From assembly GCF_053078305.1 (NCBI RefSeq), contig NZ_CP166879.1: a DNA stretch of 64,000 bases, one strand, 5' to 3'. The notes beneath the pieces were generated by a model. That model was not told the DNA's origin and ran no database searches. It was given only the letters and a program-made list of their open reading frames with translations. The position numbers and the translations under genes were made by a program. Positions 3,248-15,004 of the stretch are shown here, piece by piece (position 1 is the stretch's first letter; the number at the start of each line of letters is the position of its first letter).

Positions 3248-3309
3248 TGTACTTCTCCTGTTTACGTAAGACTAAAGTGTGAAAACTGAGTGATAATCAA
3301 CACAATACG

Positions 3310-4281
3310 TTACTTATCGATTTTGCTGATCAGATCCATCATTTTCAGTTTCGGATCGGTGGAAACCTTACGGACTTCCAGCTCAATACCGCGTGCATTC
3401 AGTTTTTTGAACGCCTCGATATCTTTTTCATCAACCGAAACCGCGTTATTCACCTGGGTTTTACCCTGACGGAATGCCATACCACCGACGTTAACAGAGG
3501 TGATTTTCACGCCGCCTTCAACGAGACGCTCTACATCTGTTGGGTTGGTAAATAACAGCATTACACGTTCGCCAGCATATTTCGGGTTGTTGTAGACGCG
3601 AATCATTTTGGCAACATCAACTACGTGTGCTGTTACGCCCGGAGGTGCAACCTGGGTGAGCAGTGTCTTACGAACGGTATCCGCAGCCACTTCATCACTA
3701 ACAACAATAATACGGGAGACATTGGTTTCTTTGGTCCAGCGGGTGGCGACCTGACCGTGAATCAGACGGTCGTCGATACGCGCAAGGCCAATAACCATGT
3801 AGTCGTTTGGCCCCATTGGTTTTGCCGGAGTTGGAGCCGATTTTGGTGCTGCGGCAGCGGGTGCTGGCGCGGCTTTTTCAACCGGTTTGGCTTTCAGTGC
3901 TTTCACGCCTTCACGGCCTGTTTCTACTGCCAGCGCAACCAGTTCATCAAAGCTTGGGTCATCATCACGAGCCATTAACGTTTCCACGAGCATTGGAATG
4001 TTAACGCCTGCAATGACTTCATAATGCTCTTTGTCGACGACAATGCGGCTGGCAGCATTGAACGGGCTGCCTCCCCATGTATCAACGAGAAACAGCACGC
4101 CTTTAGTGGTGTCGAGTTTTGCCAACTGAGCGTTGTACTTTTCAATCAGCGTTTCGGCATTTTCACCTGGAACGAAATCGATCCAGCCGACGTTTTCCTG
4201 CTCGCCTAACAGCATTTCTGCCGTTTTAAGCAACTGCTCTGCAGCCCAACCATGTGTGCCTATAACAATAGCAATGGTCAC
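3310..4281 (-). CDS. manX: PTS mannose transporter subunit IIAB (ManX)
   Basis: 323-aa two-domain protein with Ala/Pro-rich linker KAAPAPAAAAPKSAPTPAKP. Confidence 0.95.
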   Translation of the reverse strand: MTIAIVIGTHGWAAEQLLKTAEMLLGEQENVGWIDFVPGENAETLIEKYNAQLAKLDTTKGVLFLVDTWGGSPFNAASRIVVDKEHYEVIAGVNIPMLVETLMARDDDPSFDELVALAVETGREGVKALKAKPVEKAAPAPAAAAPKSAPTPAKPMGPNDYMVIGLARIDDRLIHGQVATRWTKETNVSRIIVVSDEVAADTVRKTLLTQVAPPGVTAHVVDVAKMIRVYNNPKYAGERVMLLFTNPTDVERLVEGGVKITSVNVGGMAFRQGKTQVNNAVSVDEKDIEAFKKLNARGIELEVRKVSTDPKLKMMDLISKIDK

Positions 4282-4398
4282 TTGCTACCTCCTTTATTAT
4301 CGTTAACACCTCAACGTGCCAGATGTATTTTTGAATCGTCGTCCACAATCGAATCGATTCAGATAAGGGCTACAACCAAAAACCCCTGCGTTTCGCGA

Positions 4399-4446
4399 TT
4401 TATTTTAGATATCGAAAAAATTATTTTATGTGATGAAGATCCGTAA
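4399..4446. promoter_or_regulatory. Candidate Mlc and CRP operators in the manX promoter region
   Basis: TTATTT-N9-AAAAAA (Mlc/NagC-like spacing) at 4400-4420 and TGTGA half-site at about 4428-4445; assignment by established knowledge that manXYZ is Mlc/CRP controlled. Confidence 0.4.
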
Positions 4447-4743
4447 TTTAACTTTCGATTAGCAGAAATTTCGAAAGGTAAAATATCCTTGTCACATTCG
4501 TTTGCAAAGGAAGGTAAATCTTTGCCAAATCAGAGGCGTCTCTGATATGTTTAACTCCCGTTTAACAACCATGGAGTATAGGGCAGTAGCCCGCAGTATG
4601 GATCGTCACCGACGTCATTTCAGCATCAGGCCTTTTAACGCCTGCCTTTCTGGCACTCTATGCCGCACCTTTCGTTTGCATTTTGTCGTTACGCCTGCAT
4701 TATTTCTGGCGTCGAATAGCTATTCCTTAAGCAGGAGCTTGTC

Positions 4744-6300
4744 ATGGAATTCTTAATGGACCCCTCAATTTGGGCGGGGCTACTCACGCTTGTTGTTCTC
4801 GAAATTGTGCTGGGTATCGATAACCTGGTCTTCATCGCCATTCTTGCTGACAAACTGCCGCCAAAACAACGCGATAAAGCGCGTTTGCTGGGGTTATCAC
4901 TGGCGCTGATTATGCGTCTGGGGCTGCTGTCGCTGATTTCATGGATGGTCACGCTGACCAAACCGCTATTTACCGTCATGGATTTCTCCTTCTCCGGACG
5001 CGACCTGATTATGTTGTTCGGGGGGATATTCTTGCTGTTCAAAGCAACAACCGAACTGCATGAACGGCTGGAAAACCGCGATCATGATTCCGGCCACGGT
5101 AAAGGCTACGCCAGTTTCTGGGTAGTCGTCACACAGATTGTCATCCTTGACGCCGTCTTCTCGTTGGATGCGGTAATTACTGCTGTAGGGATGGTTAACC
5201 ATCTGCCGGTGATGATGGCGGCGGTAGTGATTGCGATGGCGGTTATGTTGCTGGCATCCAAACCGCTGACGCGATTTGTTAACCAGCACCCCACGGTGGT
5301 GGTGCTCTGTCTGAGCTTCCTGTTAATGATTGGTCTGAGTCTGGTGGCAGAAGGTTTCGGTTTCCACATTCCGAAAGGTTACCTGTATGCCGCGATTGGC
5401 TTCTCGATCATCATCGAAGTGTTTAACCAGATTGCGCGTCGCAACTTTATTCGTCACCAGTCGACTTTGCCGCTGCGAGCGCGTACTGCCGATGCCATCC
5501 TGCGTTTGATGGGCGGGAAACGTCAGGCCAATGTTCAGCACGATGCCGATAACCCGATGCCGATGCCGATCCCGGAAGGTGCATTTGCCGAAGAAGAACG
5601 TTACATGATTAACGGCGTACTGACGCTGGCGTCGCGTTCTCTGCGCGGGATCATGACGCCGCGCGGTGAAATAAGCTGGGTTGACGCTAATCTCGGGGTC
5701 GATGAAATCCGCGAGCAGCTGCTCTCCTCACCGCACAGCCTGTTCCCGGTATGTCGCGGTGAACTGGATGAAATCATCGGAATCGTACGTGCTAAAGAAC
5801 TGCTGGTGGCGCTGGAAGAGGGCGTTGATGTGGCGGCGATTGCTTCGGCGTCTCCGGCGATTATCGTCCCTGAAACCCTCGATCCGATCAACCTGCTGGG
5901 CGTGCTGCGTCGTGCTCGCGGGAGCTTTGTTATCGTGACCAACGAGTTTGGTGTGGTACAAGGCTTGGTCACGCCGCTGGATGTGCTGGAAGCCATTGCG
6001 GGTGAATTCCCGGACGCTGACGAAACGCCGGAAATCATTACTGATGGTGACGGCTGGCTGGTAAAAGGCGGTACAGATTTGCATGCCTTGCAGCAGGCGC
6101 TTGATGTTGAGCACCTTGCCGATGACGATGATATCGCGACGGTCGCGGGCCTCGTGATCTCGGCAAATGGTCACATTCCCCGTGTGGGCGATGTGATTGA
6201 TGTAGGGCCACTGCATATCACCATCATTGAAGCCAATGATTATCGTGTTGATCTGGTTCGCATTGTTAAAGAGCAACCGGCGCACGATGAAGATGAGTAA
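4744..6300 (+). CDS. yoaE: TerC-family integral membrane protein with C-terminal CBS pair and CorC-type domain (YoaE)
   Basis: 518-aa ORF, N-terminal multi-TM region and C-terminal soluble domain. Confidence 0.9.
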
Positions 6301-10162: not shown

Positions 10163-11524
10163 TTACTTCTCCAGTTGGCGTAATATCTTATTAACTTTAT
10201 CAAAAGTTTCCTGATATTCCGCTTCTTCCTGGCTATCGGCGACAATTCCACCGCCCGCAGAGCAGTATATTTGTCCGTTAATGGCAGTCAGCGTGCGGAT
10301 AGTAATGCTGGTATCCATGTTGCCGCAAAAGCTCAAATAGCCAATGCTGCCGCACCAGGCATTACGTCGCTGCGGTTCCAGTTCGTCGATAATTTCCATA
10401 GCCCGTACTTTCGGAGCCCCGGTTATTGAACCACCAGGAAAAGCCGCGCGCAGCAGATCGCTGGCGTGTAACTGTTCTGGTAGTTGCGCCGTTATGGTGC
10501 TGACCAGATGATGCACGGCAGGGAAGGGTTCCACCACGAACAGCTCTGGTACTTTTACCGAACCTGCTACGGCAACACGACCGATATCATTACGCATTAA
10601 ATCGACAATCATCAGATTTTCGGCACGATCTTTCGCTGAGTTCGCCAGTTTTTCCGCTTGTTTGCTATCTTCCTGAGGATCGGGCAGGCGTGGTAGCGTG
10701 CCTTTAATCGGGCGGGTCTGGATTTCACAATTATCACAAAGAATAAACCGCTCTGGCGAAAGGCTTAAAATTGCACCCTGTTCAAGACGTAAAAAAGCGC
10801 TAAATGGCGCGCGGTTGGCCTGATAAAGCTGAAGGAATGCCTGCCATTCATCGCCAGAATAGGTCGCATGAAAACGCTGGGCGAGATTCACCTGATAGCA
10901 ATCACCGCTGTGCAGATATTCCTGTACCTGGCGAAATTTTTCGCCGTACTGCTCGCGGGTCATATTGGATTGCCAGTCGGAAGTGAGCGTGAAATCTTCC
11001 TGCGGCGAGAATTGCTGGCTTTCCAGCCAGGCCCGACGGGCATTGACATCATTATGACTCAGCAAAGAAACTGTATGACGCTGGTGGTCGACAATGAGCG
11101 CCCAATCGTAGATACCCACTGCCATATCCGGCAGAACGATATCTTGTTCCGCAATTTCTGGCAGTGACTCAAAACGGCGGCCCAGATCGTAGCCAAACAA
11201 CCCCAGTGCGCCGCCCTGAAATGGCAAATCTTCGTTATGCGTTGGGCGAATGTCTGCGCGATCCAGCACCTGCTGGAGCACCTGTAGCGGGTCATCAGTG
11301 GTCGTTGTGCGTTTTTCGCTTTCACTAACAACGGTTTCTTTACCTAAAGTGGTTAAAGTGCAAATCGGATCGGCGACCACAATATCAAAGCGGCTATACG
11401 GATGATCGGCATAGCCGGAGTGTAAAAGCATCGCCCACGGCAGGTGGCTTAAGCGGGAGAAATAAAATTCAGCGGCGTCCTGACGCCAGGGTAAAGTAAT
11501 CACAGCGGGAGATAACGTCTTCAT
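10163..11524 (-). CDS. pabB: Aminodeoxychorismate synthase component I (PabB)
   Basis: 453-aa ORF, anthranilate/ADC synthase family sequence. Confidence 0.95.
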   Translation of the reverse strand: MKTLSPAVITLPWRQDAAEFYFSRLSHLPWAMLLHSGYADHPYSRFDIVVADPICTLTTLGKETVVSESEKRTTTTDDPLQVLQQVLDRADIRPTHNEDLPFQGGALGLFGYDLGRRFESLPEIAEQDIVLPDMAVGIYDWALIVDHQRHTVSLLSHNDVNARRAWLESQQFSPQEDFTLTSDWQSNMTREQYGEKFRQVQEYLHSGDCYQVNLAQRFHATYSGDEWQAFLQLYQANRAPFSAFLRLEQGAILSLSPERFILCDNCEIQTRPIKGTLPRLPDPQEDSKQAEKLANSAKDRAENLMIVDLMRNDIGRVAVAGSVKVPELFVVEPFPAVHHLVSTITAQLPEQLHASDLLRAAFPGGSITGAPKVRAMEIIDELEPQRRNAWCGSIGYLSFCGNMDTSITIRTLTAINGQIYCSAGGGIVADSQEEAEYQETFDKVNKILRQLEK

Positions 11525-11597
11525 CAGTCCTGACTCTACTGGCTATGTGCCGGGTAGCATGAAATAATTAGCGCCAACAATTTAGCAGGAGTTAACA

Positions 11598-11777
11598 ATG
11601 TTTGCAGGTTTACCTTCACTCACCCATGAACAGCAGCAAAAAGCTGTCGAGCGGATCCAGGAACTGATGGCACAAGGGATGAGCAGCGGCCAGGCAATCG
11701 CGCTGGTGGCAGAAGAGCTGCGTGCCAACCACTCCGGCGAGCGAATCGTGGCGCGTTTTGAGGATGAAGACGAGTAA
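11598..11777 (+). CDS. yoaH: UPF0181 small protein YoaH (59 aa)
   Basis: ATG 11598, stop TAA 11775-11777; below the ORF-track length cutoff; protein [59 protein letters not shown]. Confidence 0.8.
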
Positions 11778-11831
11778 CACACTAATCCGTATCGATTTCG
11801 TTATAGAAGCCGATGATTATTTGATTGTGAG

Positions 11832-11869
11832 AAAAAGGACGCTTTTTATATGTGATTAAAAGCGTCCTG
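11832..11869 (-). terminator. Hairpin terminator between convergent yoaH and yoaC
   Basis: 10-bp inverted repeat AGGACGCTTT / AAAGCGTCCT; on minus strand followed by T-run. Confidence 0.55.
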
Positions 11870-11896
11870 ACCCATTTATGCTGATATAAATTTAAC

Positions 11897-12196
11897 TCAG
11901 ACCAGTGCTTTTAGTTCTTCCTGCATATATGTTGAAAAGTACTCAGGATTTTTAATCACAGAGCGTTCACCTGTCTCCATTTTTTTTGCCCATCCAACCA
12001 TTTTTTCTGTGAACCCAGGGTTCCAGCCTTCCTGGTCAGCTCGCGCCGTAATATCAGCGGCACTCGCGGGTACTCCCAGTTCTTTTAAATATTTAAAGAT
12101 TCCCTTCGCCGTGCTTTCATTCATCGAACTTGGTGTTGGCGCTGATACATCCATGGCACCAATGAAATCCAGGGCTTTATCTATTACAGCAGGCAT
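11897..12196 (-). CDS. yoaC: DUF1889 protein YoaC (99 aa)
   Basis: Start chosen at internal ATG (AAGGA Shine-Dalgarno 8 nt upstream) rather than track start 12256, which lacks an SD. Confidence 0.75.
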   Translation of the reverse strand: MPAVIDKALDFIGAMDVSAPTPSSMNESTAKGIFKYLKELGVPASAADITARADQEGWNPGFTEKMVGWAKKMETGERSVIKNPEYFSTYMQEELKALV

Positions 12197-12617
12197 ATTC
12201 TTATCCTTAAAATTAACCATGTTATCGATAAGGCTATATATGACCTTAATTTGCATCTAATATCAAAGGGATTATAACGATATGGCACGACTTAACCTGT
12301 TGACATTCAGGTGTTTTAAAGGTAGCAGCTCATGGTGTGTTATCCAGTAAGATGGAGAAAATTAACGGTCAGTCCGCACGCTATAACCAGATTGTTCAGC
12401 TAAGAAAAAAAACCAGAGTTGCTAATCAAAGGGCGAACACAACGGCATGGTTATGTTTATTTATATAGTTAGTTTTATAGATAAAATTGAAATTATAAAA
12501 ATAAATAATGAATTAGCAGAAGCATCAACAGTAATATCTTATTCTCTGGTCGATTTATGTAAAACCGACCAGTATTATCGATAAATTATCGTCTGACTTA
12601 TTTTGCTTCGATAAAGC

Positions 12618-12962
12618 TTACACCGCAGCCACAATCTTAATTTCAACTTTATACTTCGGGTTCATCAAACCCGCTTGTACCGTGCAGCGCACCGGCGCAT
12701 GACCCGCGACAACCCAGGCATCCCACGCTTTATTCATCGCCGCGAAGTCGTTTTTATCGGCCAGGAAAATGGTGGCATCCAGAATACTCGATTTATTGCT
12801 GCCCTGTTTTTCCAGCACGGCGTCAATCTGCGCCAGCGTGTTGGCGGTTTGCTCAAAGGCATCGGCGTCGAGGTTTTCCGGTACACCAGTGTAGTAGAGC
12901 GTGTTGTTGTGGATTACTACATCAGACCAGCGGGCTTCAGCATCGATACGAACGATAGTCAT
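12618..12962 (-). CDS. yoaB: RidA/YjgF-family protein YoaB (114 aa)
   Basis: Start at second ATG of an ATG-ATG pair (GAGGA Shine-Dalgarno); track ORF has 16 extra N-terminal codons. Confidence 0.85.
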   Translation of the reverse strand: MTIVRIDAEARWSDVVIHNNTLYYTGVPENLDADAFEQTANTLAQIDAVLEKQGSNKSSILDATIFLADKNDFAAMNKAWDAWVVAGHAPVRCTVQAGLMNPKYKVEIKIVAAV

Positions 12963-13093
12963 CATTTTGTCCTCATTATCCTTCCATTTTCGTGCTGCAA
13001 AGACTGCCACAATGTGAGGTCGCCGTCACCACTTCAACTGGCGAAAGCGCCCTCATCCTGACATAATCCCTGTTCAAATCAACAGGGGGTAGT

Positions 13094-15004
13094 GTGACGG
13101 ACGATTTTGCACCAGACGGTCAGCTGGCGAAAGCGATACCAGGCTTTAAGCCGCGAGAACCACAGCGACAGATGGCGGTAGCCGTCACCCAGGCGATAGA
13201 AAAAGGCCAGCCGCTGGTGGTGGAAGCAGGAACCGGTACGGGCAAAACCTACGCTTACCTGGCTCCTGCGCTGCGGGCGAAAAAGAAAGTCATTATCTCG
13301 ACCGGCTCAAAAGCGTTGCAGGATCAGCTCTATAGCCGCGATTTGCCGACGGTCTCAAAGGCGTTGAAATACACGGGCAACGTGGCGTTGCTGAAAGGGC
13401 GCTCAAACTACCTCTGCCTCGAACGTCTCGAACAGCAGGCGCTGGCGGGGGGCGATCTTCCGGTACAAATATTAAGCGATGTGATCCTGCTGCGCTCCTG
13501 GTCTAATCAAACAGTCGATGGTGATATCAGCACCTGCGTCAGCGTGGCGGAAGATTCGCAGGCGTGGCCGCTGGTCACCAGCACCAACGACAACTGTCTT
13601 GGCAGCGACTGCCCGATGTATAAAGATTGCTTTGTGGTCAAAGCACGTAAAAAAGCGATGGACGCCGATGTGGTGGTGGTAAACCATCATCTCTTTCTGG
13701 CGGATATGGTGGTTAAAGAGAGTGGATTTGGCGAGTTGATCCCGGAAGCGGACGTCATGATCTTCGACGAAGCCCACCAGCTACCGGACATTGCCAGCCA
13801 GTATTTTGGTCAGTCACTCTCCAGTCGACAACTGCTCGACCTGGCAAAAGACATCACCATCGCCTACCGCACCGAATTAAAAGACACTCAGCAGTTACAA
13901 AAGTGCGCTGATCGTCTTGCCCAGAGTGCGCAGGATTTTCGTCTGCAACTCGGTGAGCCAGGTTATCGCGGTAACCTGCGTGAGCTGTTAGCTAATCCGC
14001 AAATTCAGCGGGCATTTTTACTGCTCGATGACACCCTGGAACTTTGTTATGACGTGGCGAAACTGTCACTGGGGCGTTCCGCCTTGCTGGATGCGGCATT
14101 TGAGCGCGCCACGTTGTATCGCACACGGCTGAAGCGGCTAAAAGAGATCAATCAGCCGGGCTACAGCTACTGGTACGAATGCACTTCGCGCCATTTTACT
14201 CTGGCTCTCACGCCGCTCAGCGTGGCGGATAAATTCAAAGAGTTAATGGCGCAAAAGCCCGGTAGCTGGATCTTCACCTCAGCAACGCTGTCGGTGAACG
14301 ACGATCTGCATCATTTCACCTCGCGGCTTGGGATAGAACAGGCGGAGTCGTTGCTATTGCCAAGCCCGTTTGATTACAGCCGCCAGGCGTTACTCTGTGT
14401 GCCGCGCAACCTGCCGCAAACCAATCAACCGGGTTCCGCGCGGCAACTGGCGGCTATGCTGCGCCCGATCATCGAAGCTAACAACGGTCGCTGTTTTATG
14501 CTTTGTACCTCGCACGCCATGATGCGCGATCTGGCCGAGCAGTTCCGCGCTACCATGACGCTTCCCGTATTATTGCAGGGGGAAACCAGCAAAGGGCAAC
14601 TGTTGCAGCAATTTGTCAGTGCCGGTAACGCGCTTCTTGTGGCAACCAGTAGTTTCTGGGAGGGGGTGGACGTGCGTGGCGATACATTGTCATTGGTGAT
14701 TATCGACAAATTGCCGTTTACCTCGCCTGATGATCCATTGTTAAAAGCGCGCATGGAAGATTGCCGTTTGCGCGGTGGCGACCCGTTCGATGAAGTACAA
14801 CTGCCGGATGCGGTGATTACTCTCAAGCAGGGAGTCGGGCGACTGATTCGCGACGCCGACGATCGCGGGGTTTTGGTAATTTGTGACAATCGGCTGGTGA
14901 TGCGTCCTTACGGCGCGACGTTTCTCGCCAGTCTGCCGCCCGCGCCACGCACCCGTGACATTGCCCGTGCGGTTCGTTTCCTTGCGATACCATCCTCCAG
15001 GTAA
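13094..15004 (+). CDS. yoaA: DinG-family ATP-dependent DNA helicase YoaA
   Basis: 636 aa, GTG start; Walker A AGTGTGKT, DEAH box, four-Cys Fe-S cluster (CLERL, CVSV, CLGSDCPMYKDC). Confidence 0.92.
   Translation: MTDDFAPDGQLAKAIPGFKPREPQRQMAVAVTQAIEKGQPLVVEAGTGTGKTYAYLAPALRAKKKVIISTGSKALQDQLYSRDLPTVSKALKYTGNVALLKGRSNYLCLERLEQQALAGGDLPVQILSDVILLRSWSNQTVDGDISTCVSVAEDSQAWPLVTSTNDNCLGSDCPMYKDCFVVKARKKAMDADVVVVNHHLFLADMVVKESGFGELIPEADVMIFDEAHQLPDIASQYFGQSLSSRQLLDLAKDITIAYRTELKDTQQLQKCADRLAQSAQDFRLQLGEPGYRGNLRELLANPQIQRAFLLLDDTLELCYDVAKLSLGRSALLDAAFERATLYRTRLKRLKEINQPGYSYWYECTSRHFTLALTPLSVADKFKELMAQKPGSWIFTSATLSVNDDLHHFTSRLGIEQAESLLLPSPFDYSRQALLCVPRNLPQTNQPGSARQLAAMLRPIIEANNGRCFMLCTSHAMMRDLAEQFRATMTLPVLLQGETSKGQLLQQFVSAGNALLVATSSFWEGVDVRGDTLSLVIIDKLPFTSPDDPLLKARMEDCRLRGGDPFDEVQLPDAVITLKQGVGRLIRDADDRGVLVICDNRLVMRPYGATFLASLPPAPRTRDIARAVRFLAIPSSR

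Follow-up and report, generated by a model that had tools for sequence, protein, structure and literature searches.

The spacer between yoaB and yoaC of Escherichia coli is most probably a composite of regulatory elements, the non-coding half of an insertion seen here in Escherichia alone; it combines a hairpin at the 3′ end of yoaB, AT-rich DNA bound by regulators, a sigma70/sigmaS promoter for yoaC, a conserved leader, and a weak promoter on the plus strand. The stretch of E. coli chromosome under analysis, hereafter the window, spans 64 kb; the yoaB-yoaC intergenic region occupies its positions 12197-12617, flanked by yoaC (11897-12196) and yoaB (12618-12962), both on the minus strand. The spacer measures 421 bp, has a GC content of 32.5%, against 49.3% for the whole window, and bears no annotation in either the K-12 RefSeq record or strain A16; the segment was found in 5381 of 5426 complete E. 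coli genomes. A previous sequence-only reading had described it as an AT-rich, gene-free spacer, and this was borne out, with no support for any of its ORFs or for any RNA family. Overall, the spacer is ordinary control DNA, made of the yoaB hairpin, a regulator-bound region, and the mapped yoaC promoter with its leader, and these elements are already present in published genome-wide data sets.

Regarding the promoter (12312-12346, minus strand), the transcription start of yoaC, 1892041(+) in the published coordinates (1894017 in K-12 NC_000913.3) and an A at 12312 in the window, was recorded with 21 reads in one table (Kim 2012) and with 4268 reads, bound by sigma D and sigma S, in a second (Cho 2014), both tables coming from one laboratory and covering few growth conditions; the SMRT-Cappable-seq data hold no entry for yoaC. 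Transcription thus begins inside the spacer, in line with the general idea of the sequence-only reading that the yoaC promoter resides here and with the start-site mapping proposed as its check; the outcome named as its refutation, a region devoid of initiation, did not occur. The promoter is kept in five of six Escherichia lineages. Its extended −10 element, GCTACCTTTAA (12326-12316), is of the sigmaS type and qualifies as a −10 element, with A at −11, T at −7, C at −13, and TAA at −6 to −4, while the hexamer within it, TACCTT (12324-12319), agrees with TATAAT at three of six positions. The −35-like TGGATA (12346-12341), separated from the hexamer by 16 nt, is weak, with four of six positions matching, and a consensus promoter scan, which returned 2 promoter-like sites against 3.4 expected and was uninformative, missed the mapped promoter altogether. 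Given this weak −35 element and the poor −10 hexamer, the assignment relies on the mapped start and on the ChIP of the sigma factors, not on sequence.

In its details, the promoter resembles those that depend on sigmaS: GCTACCTTTAA, at −14 to −4, matches 9 of 11 positions of KCTAYRCTTAA, the extended −10 consensus reportedly given for sigmaS by Weber and co-workers in 2005, and the −35 element is weak. Other shared traits are the presence of both sigma70 and sigmaS at the start site and the lower amount of yoaC mRNA in the ΔrpoS mutant (Cho 2014); the core hexamer is instead poor for this class, and the decrease in log2 expression, from ∼12.1 in the wild type to ∼9.7 in the mutant, comes with a p value of 0.058 (Cho 2014, Table S7). 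RNA polymerase gives a ChIP-exo signal at yoaC (Gao 2018), and a table of O157:H7 growth-transition genes includes yoaC with a value of 2.05 in cluster 2, whose entries are mostly positive. A promoter of the sigma70/sigmaS type would start the yoaC mRNA at 12312, and such a promoter fits both the lower expression in ΔrpoS and the apparent rise at the transition to the stationary phase.

As for the TATAAT hexamer on the minus strand at 12276-12271 (ATTATA on the plus strand at 12271-12276), which precedes the yoaC ATG by 75 nt and falls within the mapped transcript, at +37 to +42, the sequence-only reading had regarded it as fit for a yoaC promoter. The hexamer does exist inside the spacer and is conserved, but the mapped start at 12312 uses GCTACCTTTAA, and TATAAT has no −35 partner and occurs at chance level: Markov simulations of the spacer gave a mean of 1.5 copies for the two strands together and a probability of 0.54 that a given strand has one or more, and a second copy is found at 12497-12492. 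That this TATAAT is the −10 element of yoaC, main or condition-specific, with a start near 12264 and a leader of ∼68 nt, is conceivable but doubtful. Such a role would suit a hexamer that matches the consensus in full, has G at −14, and is invariant in Escherichia except for GATAAT in E. whittamii; it would also suit its location, exactly where the homology of the yoaC cassette between genera begins, namely at the upstream limit of what travels with yoaC in other genera, where little intergenic space lies upstream (∼110 nt in Citrobacter) and −10-like hexamers such as GACAAT and GATAAA occupy the position aligned with TATAAT. However, the tables of Kim 2012 and Cho 2014 list no start 6-8 nt past the hexamer (near 12264), against the 4268 reads at 12312; the best −35 candidates match two of six positions, the bases just upstream are CGT and not TGn, the promoter scan is silent here, and chance alone places a copy on that strand with P ∼ 0.54. 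The correction is then that the mapped promoter is a different one from the conspicuous TATAAT and that yoaC has a sigmaS-like promoter with a leader of 116 nt; the hexamer could represent a secondary −10 element or an ancestral one, and it could act as a conditional second promoter.

The yoaC 5′ UTR extends from the start at 12312 to 12197, next to the K-12 start codon at 12196. The segment proximal to the gene (12197-12270) is conserved in an alignment of 17 yoaC loci from five genera and has 2.4% variable columns within E. coli; its blocks are YTTTGAWAT, GGNCATA, and GGTTAATTTTAAGGATAAGA, the last of which contains the Shine-Dalgarno sequence AAGGA (12208-12204). The mRNA would then carry a 116-nt leader comprising the ribosome-binding site and TATAAT, whose last ∼75 nt accompany the gene in all genera examined. 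At the opposite end of the leader, the perfect dyad ACCTG-N8-CAGGT (12295-12312) covers +1 to +18 of the transcript and includes TTGACA on the plus strand (12300-12305); it is conserved apart from one G-U change and one mismatch, it is unused in the minimum-free-energy fold, and it may be a 5′-terminal stem-loop or an operator. No significant fold was found for the leader (z 0.29), with z ∼ 0 for single-sequence folds, and RNAalifold on 14 leader loci gave −0.6 kcal/mol and zero covariation. Two candidate control devices were discarded: a helix sequestering the start codon and the Shine-Dalgarno sequence (GGNCAUAU with AUAUGCC, and CCUUA with UAAGG) did not rise above shuffled sequences, and a CsrA-type GGA pair is not sustained, the upstream GG motif never being GGA in any genus.

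Upstream of the promoter, an AT-rich region (12351-12540, −40 to −230 relative to the yoaC start) evolves fast: among eight E. coli strains it has 14.2% variable columns versus 6.3% in the yoaC coding sequence, it aligns poorly between Escherichia species, and ∼150 bp of it are deleted in Escherichia sp. MOD1-EC7003. The pattern of conservation across the spacer is hence one of a conserved promoter and leader and a variable middle. Two regulators are connected with this DNA. The first is YhaJ: yoaC is cited as a YhaJ-regulated gene, with a ChIP-seq peak in the spacer in both EHEC and UPEC (Connolly 2019), and it is not included in Palevsky 2016. The centers from two UPEC replicates, CFT073 2045445 and 2045463 (Connolly 2019, SI Tables S3 and S4), fall at 12538-12556 once mapped via the positions of yoaB and yoaC, and the EHEC center would lie at about the same place; the PS values of the peak are 10.4 and 21.1 in EHEC and 7.2 and 2.3 in UPEC (Connolly 2019). 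In the same work, TTATAGATAAAATTGA (12475-12490, plus strand), 65-66 bp from the peak center, was proposed as the LysR-type (T-N11-A) box of YhaJ; this sequence (12478-12490 as scanned) is a weak match, with two mismatches in six to TCA-N7-TGA, and it sits inside an imperfect AT-rich dyad (12456-12508). Scanning the spacer with TCA-N7-TGA returned no site free of mismatches, the best having one in six (12307-12319 and 12330-12342), a score shared by 294 sites in the 64 kb. Closer to the ChIP center, TCAACAGTA (12525-12533, plus strand) shares all of its 9 nt with the beginning of the YhaJ box listed for ybiJ, TCAACAGTACAATTGA, and might be a YhaJ site; with a rough chance estimate of ∼0.03 for such a 9-mer match, it is a lead only.

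Compared with the promoters that YhaJ controls at yqjF, ybiJ, yhaK, and yhhW, yoaC shares the peak in both EHEC and UPEC and the proposed T-N11-A box, but differs in its weak matches to TCA-N7-TGA and in the location of the peak, whose center is ∼230-245 bp upstream of the yoaC start, unusually far for a LysR-type activator. The second regulator, YeiE, activates yoaC and binds upstream of the RNA polymerase site in ChIP-exo experiments (Gao 2018), probably within 12351-12540. Control of yoaC would then involve YhaJ bound at the yoaB-side edge of ∼190 bp of AT-rich DNA, with YeiE acting from upstream of the polymerase as an activator, and binding of the nucleoid protein H-NS with subsequent counter-silencing may take place in the spacer as well.

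The edge of the spacer facing yoaB holds the end of the yoaB mRNA. A Term-seq 3′ end at K-12 1893787(+), detected in two conditions (Adams 2021, supplementary file 1), corresponds to 12542 in the window and defines a 3′ UTR of 76 nt (12542-12617). The inverted repeat CTGGTCG...CGACCAG, already noticed in the sequence-only reading but given no role there, is a hairpin at this 3′ end; the repeat itself is real and beyond chance, only the coordinates having been off by one. Its arms, CTGGTCG at 12546-12552 and CGACCAG at 12566-12572, extend to 11 nt each, so that the hairpin (12546-12572, minus strand) has an 11-bp stem, with one G-U pair in the yoaB sense, and a 5-nt loop. The 69-nt stretch around it folds on the minus strand with −17.9 kcal/mol (z −4.5; none of 200 shuffles as good), and on the plus strand with −12.7 kcal/mol (z −1.95), and six Escherichia lineages display three compensatory pairs together with G-U variants.

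The stable stem-loop with its GC-rich base, its position in a 3′ UTR, the RNA end 4 nt past the stem, and the compensatory pairing are all traits of intrinsic terminators and of stem-loops that stabilize 3′ ends. Unlike intrinsic terminators, the yoaB hairpin has no U-tract right after the stem in E. coli (tail AGAGAAUAAG / AGAGAAUAAGAU) and does not fit the canonical definition, and the mapped end may come from exonucleolytic trimming; a consensus-type scan, which missed this hairpin, gave zero terminators and no terminator-like site with a T-run, and a U-rich tail appears in only some of the other Escherichia lineages, such as UGUUUUAG. No Rho-dependent region at the yoaB end is listed in Adams 2021. 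We infer that the hairpin is most likely a non-canonical terminator or a stop for 3′ exonucleases; by either route, it would insulate yoaC from yoaB, the more strongly transcribed gene.

Just beyond the hairpin, a weak promoter is found on the plus strand (12573-12585), with TATTAT as the −10 element (12573-12578) and a sigma70 start at 12585, or 1891768(−), supported by 12 reads (Kim 2012, Cho 2014); it would produce a low-level transcript antisense to yoaB. In the published work, the transcript from 12585 was assigned to yoaA with a 509-nt leader (Kim 2012, Cho 2014). This RNA, antisense to yoaB, heads toward yoaA, a DNA-repair helicase gene.

The vicinity of this promoter bears on whether the palindrome at 12546-12572 acts mainly as DNA, as an operator for YhaJ or another protein that controls the plus-strand promoter at 12585 or the distant yoaC. 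The YhaJ peak centers do map onto it (12538-12556), the hairpin has no U-tract, and the palindrome overlaps the −35/spacer region of the start at 12585. Even so, an operator is distinctly improbable, because the arms co-vary with pairing maintained and the G-U variants pair only in RNA of the yoaB sense, the fold is far better on the minus strand, and the RNA ends 4 nt past the stem; in addition, the arms do not resemble TCA-N7-TGA, and offsets of 65-93 bp between ChIP center and motif occur at other YhaJ targets too, including the characterized yqjF. A hairpin of the yoaB mRNA accounts better for these data.

A search for a small RNA had also been suggested for the spacer, and it found no support: matches to Rfam over 11000-14000 at E ≤ 10 were chance snoRNA- or TLS-like hits with E > 3, and Term-seq places a single 3′ end in the spacer, that of the yoaB hairpin. 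With the middle of the spacer being its least conserved part, the features of a small RNA gene are missing. Those of a small protein gene are missing as well, since none of the ORFs is both intact and changed by substitutions of the coding type. The spacer has six ORFs of 22-45 amino acids, with no Pfam match for any of them; those of 43 and 45 amino acids are interrupted by stop codons or a frameshift in other strains of E. coli, whereas the 22-residue ORF (12282-12350) is intact in eight E. coli strains. In the latter, every change is non-synonymous, the frame overlaps the conserved promoter, and the ATG is missing in other Escherichia. An unannotated gene for a small RNA or a small protein, which a long AT-rich intergenic region with two transcription starts, six ORFs, and an intact 22-residue frame might bring to mind, is therefore extremely improbable: Rfam and Pfam give no match, the Term-seq end belongs to the yoaB hairpin alone, the two longest frames are broken, the substitution pattern and the loss of the ATG speak against the short one, and nowhere in the locus is polymorphism higher than in the middle of the spacer.

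The origin of the spacer emerges from the comparison with other genera. The stop codons of yoaH and yoaB are separated by 5 bp in Salmonella, 7 in Citrobacter, 0 in Klebsiella, and 5 in Enterobacter; with this distance at 0-7 bp in four sister genera, the 840 bp found here between the two stop codons (11778-12617), which carry yoaC, the yoaC terminator, and the entire spacer, represent an insertion at this site only in Escherichia. Escherichia is the only one of the genera compared in which yoaC has yoaB on one side and yoaH on the other, and the neighborhoods of yoaC differ among Buttiauxella, Citrobacter, Lelliottia, and Klebsiella; consistently, the ortholog table for K. pneumoniae has b1809 beside b1811 and b1810 located elsewhere (Kim 2012). 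Since related genera lack it at the orthologous junction and its composition is atypical, the segment is classed as an islet. It shares with small AT-rich islets acquired horizontally, which are single-gene insertions and typically xenogeneically silenced, a GC content lower than that of the surroundings, the absence from the junction, and the varied neighborhoods of yoaC; it differs from them in having no integrase, tRNA site, flanking repeats, or phage or plasmid counterpart. Indeed, the 840 bp had no match in phage records, the matches in plasmid records were mislabeled chromosomes or the yoaC coding sequence alone, and the edges present no convincing terminal repeats or target duplications. 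The 10-bp palindrome TTATCGATAA is present at both 12222 and 12575; as it is not conserved in other Escherichia, it was treated as chance.

An insertion of this type also raises the question of whether the AT-rich middle is a decayed gene or the remnant of a mobile element that arrived with yoaC and has no present function, with protein binding being incidental. In its favor, the middle diverges faster than the neighboring coding sequence does with synonymous and nonsynonymous changes taken together, ∼150 bp of it are dispensable in Escherichia sp. MOD1-EC7003, and its base composition looks foreign. On balance, this origin is improbable: similarity to phages or true plasmids, terminal repeats, and target duplications were all looked for and not found, no protein family appears among the ORFs of at least 20 amino acids beginning with a start codon, the YhaJ peaks reproduce in two pathotypes, and activation dependent on YeiE has been reported. 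The AT-rich middle is then better regarded as regulatory DNA, and through the insertion yoaC would have come to separate yoaH and yoaB, convergent genes that used to abut, the spacer being the non-coding half of the inserted DNA.

A bolder proposal is that yoaC and its ∼75-nt leader form a single-gene cassette that entered different sites in five genera with no recognizable mobility machinery and that in Escherichia landed exactly between abutting stop codons; the accompanying DNA would now be a two-way control region, in which the YhaJ zone centered on the yoaB hairpin could govern both the distant sigmaS promoter of yoaC and the plus-strand promoter (start at 12585). As a whole, this is a long shot.

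In conclusion, the practical value of the analysis is limited but concrete, and it raises no new question of general interest. It fixes the annotation of the control region of yoaC, a poorly understood gene of the YhaJ and YeiE regulons that encodes a DUF1889 protein and whose loss renders E. coli markedly sensitive to boric acid, and it provides yoaB with a defined 3′ hairpin devoid of a U-tract. Finally, its evolutionary value lies in the example of a gene inserted between tail-to-tail genes, with the flanking mRNAs now ending at hairpins on both sides.

The sequence is E. coli chromosome in the orientation opposite to that of K-12. The spacer at 12197-12617 (421 bp; K-12 equivalent NC_000913.3 1893712-1894132) separates yoaB (12618-12962, minus) from yoaC (11897-12196, minus, taking the K-12 start codon, which gives 99 aa), with pabB (10163-11524, minus) and yoaH (11598-11777, plus) on the yoaC side and yoaA (13094-15004, plus) beyond yoaB. 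It is carried at ≥95% identity by 5381 of 5426 complete E. coli genomes; strain J2 is one of the ~45 without most of the segment, and at 4105-4871 of its locus (L027) an IS1A stands in place of the whole of yoaB, the larger part of yoaC and the 5' portion of yoaA.

The description of the spacer as AT-rich and gene-free was borne out: its GC content is 32.5% vs 49.3% for the window, RefSeq places no feature inside it in either K-12 or strain A16, no RNA family was found by an Rfam search, and none of its ORFs had a Pfam match. ORFs of 43 and 45 aa were rejected as genes, since their frames are broken in other E. coli strains by stop codons or a frameshift; so was an intact 22-aa ORF, which overlaps the conserved promoter, has only non-synonymous differences and loses its ATG in other Escherichia. 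Besides the yoaB end discussed below, the Term-seq data of Adams et al. 2021 list no RNA 3' end in the spacer. A hidden gene is very unlikely.

Regarding transcription of yoaC, a sigmaS-type extended -10, GCTACCTTTAA, is located at 12326-12316 (minus), with a weak -35-like TGGATA at 12346-12341 (minus). The sigmaS extended -10 consensus is KCTAYRCTTAA; GCTACCTTTAA agrees with it at 9 of 11 positions, among them C at -13 and TAA from -6 to -4. The promoter core is kept in five of six Escherichia lineages, and E. coli strains rarely differ in it (4.3% of columns variable). The sequence-only reading had proposed mapping of transcription starts, and published tables indeed place two within the spacer, at 12312 (minus) and 12585 (plus). 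The former, downstream of GCTACCTTTAA, is the single yoaC TSS of Kim et al. 2012 (NC_000913.2 1892041(+), 21 reads), found at the same base by Cho et al. 2014 with 4268 reads, sigma factors D and S bound and a monocistronic yoaC unit; 12312 follows both from converting the coordinate and from locating the printed 51 nt of upstream sequence. Expression of yoaC (log2) was ~12.1 in the wild type and ~9.7 in delta-rpoS (p = 0.058; Cho et al. 2014), in agreement with the sigmaS-type -10. In an O157:H7 table of genes changing at a growth transition, yoaC is entered with a value of 2.05 in cluster 2, where its fellow entries are mostly positive. Cho et al. 2014 also list two weak TSSs inside yoaC on the same strand, assigned to pabB (NC_000913.2 1892273, 18 reads, and 1892323, 6 reads), corresponding by arithmetic conversion alone to about 12080 and 12030 (minus).

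The yoaC promoter had earlier been placed at a TATAAT element. The hexamer is present (ATTATA on the plus strand at 12271-12276, TATAAT on the yoaC strand, 75 nt ahead of the ATG), but the mapped promoter uses another hexamer and, with the TSS at 12312, TATAAT falls within the 116-nt leader, at +37 to +42. A role as a secondary or ancestral yoaC promoter is possible but unlikely: it has no -35, neither Kim et al. 2012 nor Cho et al. 2014 lists a TSS for it, and its chance occurrence per strand at this AT-richness has P ~0.54 (a second copy is at 12497-12492), even though it is identical throughout Escherichia except E. whittamii (GATAAT) and sits right at the point from which the sequence shared with the yoaC loci of other genera starts, with -10-like hexamers aligned there.

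As for the leader transcribed from the 12312 start, the blocks YTTTGAWAT, GGNCATA and GGTTAATTTTAAGGATAAGA are conserved in five genera, the last containing the Shine-Dalgarno AAGGA (12208-12204, minus), and no other part of the locus varies as little within E. coli as the conserved leader (2.4% of columns). Conserved RNA structure is unsupported in it, as single-sequence folds had z about 0 and RNAalifold gave no covariation; a start-codon-sequestering helix that we considered was no better than shuffles. Most simply, the leader would be a translation-initiation region under constraint; it might instead be the binding site of some factor. The yoaC frame stays open for 20 further codons upstream, and the ATG at 12256 (minus) would give the 119-aa form of the older annotation, used by Kim et al. 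2012 and in the YhaJ ChIP distance columns. Several genera lack the in-frame ATG at 12220, whereas the Shine-Dalgarno and the 12196 ATG never vary, which supports the 99-aa form. In E. coli O18ac:H14 873.10 (L030), yoaC is annotated as frameshifted, with 1 bp lost from a T8 run at ~11980 (window 11977-11984).

The best-supported element of the spacer is the inverted repeat, reported with coordinates one base off: CTGGTCG at 12546-12552 and CGACCAG at 12566-12572, extending to 11-nt arms around a 5-nt loop. In yoaB-sense RNA it folds at -17.9 kcal/mol (z = -4.5; equalled by none of 200 shuffles), far beyond chance expectation, and the opposite strand folds more poorly (-12.7 kcal/mol, z = -1.95). 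Across six Escherichia lineages, three stem pairs are preserved by two-sided changes, and three more variants are G-U, able to pair in yoaB-sense RNA only. Under two conditions (scores 6544 and 1225), Term-seq (Adams et al. 2021) lists RNA ending at K-12 1893787(+), that is, at 12542 (minus) by both coordinate and printed flanking sequence, 4 nt past the stem and 76 nt past the yoaB stop; the 'orphan' label of this 3' end is due solely to its lying >50 bp from the ORF. The hairpin thus marks the yoaB mRNA 3' end. In E. coli no U-tract follows the stem and a consensus scan called no terminator; therefore, it is not an intrinsic terminator in the canonical sense, and the Rho-dependent regions of Adams et al. 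2021 have no entry for this end. The hairpin could be either a non-canonical terminator or a stop to which longer transcripts would be trimmed.

On the other strand, Kim et al. 2012 and Cho et al. 2014 report a weak sigma70 TSS, 1891768(-) with 12 reads, at 12585 (plus), preceded by a well-matching -10, TATTAT, at 12573-12578; the transcript, assigned in the published tables to yoaA with a 509-nt leader, runs antisense to yoaB. This -10 is not kept in the other Escherichia aligned. Two copies of a perfect 10-bp palindrome, TTATCGATAA, lie 353 bp from each other, in the yoaC leader (12222-12231) and at the plus-strand TSS (12575-12584); neither copy is conserved in other Escherichia species.

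The AT-rich middle (12351-12540) varies more than any other part of the locus: in eight E. coli strains 14.2% of its columns are variable, vs 6.3% in the yoaC CDS; across Escherichia species it is barely alignable, and ~150 bp are absent in Escherichia sp. MOD1-EC7003. In that strain (L003, 2729-3001) the yoaB-yoaC gap is just 271 bp; the middle is deleted and the sigmaS-type -10 replaced (CAGTAAAAT), with hairpin, TATAAT and leader retained. Protein binding to the middle is documented despite its divergence. Connolly et al. 2019 count yoaC as one of the genes known to be under YhaJ control and list a YhaJ ChIP-seq peak in the spacer (shape scores 10.4 and 21.1 in EHEC, 7.2 and 2.3 in UPEC), with TTATAGATAAAATTGA as proposed box, here at 12475-12490. 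The CFT073 peak centres, 2045445 and 2045463, map via the yoaB and yoaC positions to 12556 and 12538. This puts them on the hairpin, 65-66 bp away from that box; for ybiJ and yqjF, too, the tables give peak centres 72-93 bp from the motif. A motif scan found no strong TCA-N7-TGA site anywhere in the spacer. Nearer the peak, TCAACAGTA (12525-12533) matches bases 1-9 of the ybiJ box of Connolly et al. 2019 exactly and is, as a sequence match, only a lead to a closer candidate box. YeiE, another LysR-type regulator, bound upstream of the RNA polymerase site at yoaC, which Gao et al. 2018 used as their example of activation.

Regarding its origin, when one genome was scanned per species, yoaC lay between yoaB and yoaH in Escherichia only. 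In Salmonella, Citrobacter, Klebsiella and Enterobacter, yoaH and yoaB lie tail to tail with stop codons 5, 7, 0 and 5 bp apart, respectively, and in the K. pneumoniae ortholog table of Kim et al. 2012 b1809 adjoins b1811, with b1810 (yoaC) at another place. The near-abutting stops imply that 11778-12617 (840 bp) is an insertion, seen at this site in Escherichia only, containing the yoaH/yoaC bidirectional terminator, yoaC and the entire spacer with the yoaB hairpin. In other genera yoaC has unrelated neighbours (a diol-dehydratase reactivase gene and an aconitase-family gene in Citrobacter, fis-dusB in Buttiauxella, an AIPR gene in Lelliottia, an MFS transporter gene in K. pneumoniae), and cross-genus homology is limited to the yoaC CDS and ~75 nt of leader. 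The insertion lacks terminal repeats; it has no counterpart in phages, nor a genuine one in plasmids. Its terminator, a hairpin with 14-nt arms at 11836-11868, is flanked by Term-seq ends on both strands, at 11872 (+) and 11831 (-) (K-12 1894457(-), score 94187, and 1894498(+); Adams et al. 2021). The yoaC-yoaH gap is 119 bp in E. coli, 551 bp in Escherichia sp. E1V33 and E. whittamii (L004 and L005, 3300-3852) and ~305 bp in two other lineages (L003 and L007, about 3300-3610), the extra sequence lying downstream of yoaC. Neither a reference-like E. coli genome nor E. fergusonii was among the yoaC matches of the genome contig scan; the YoaC of a locus labelled E. coli SCPM-O-B-8794 is just 87% identical, so this looks like a divergent clade.

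In conclusion, there is no dedicated study of the spacer, despite its genome-wide records: its TSS, sigma assignment, RNA 3' end and YhaJ and YeiE occupancy are already in published datasets, and it is an ordinary composite control region.
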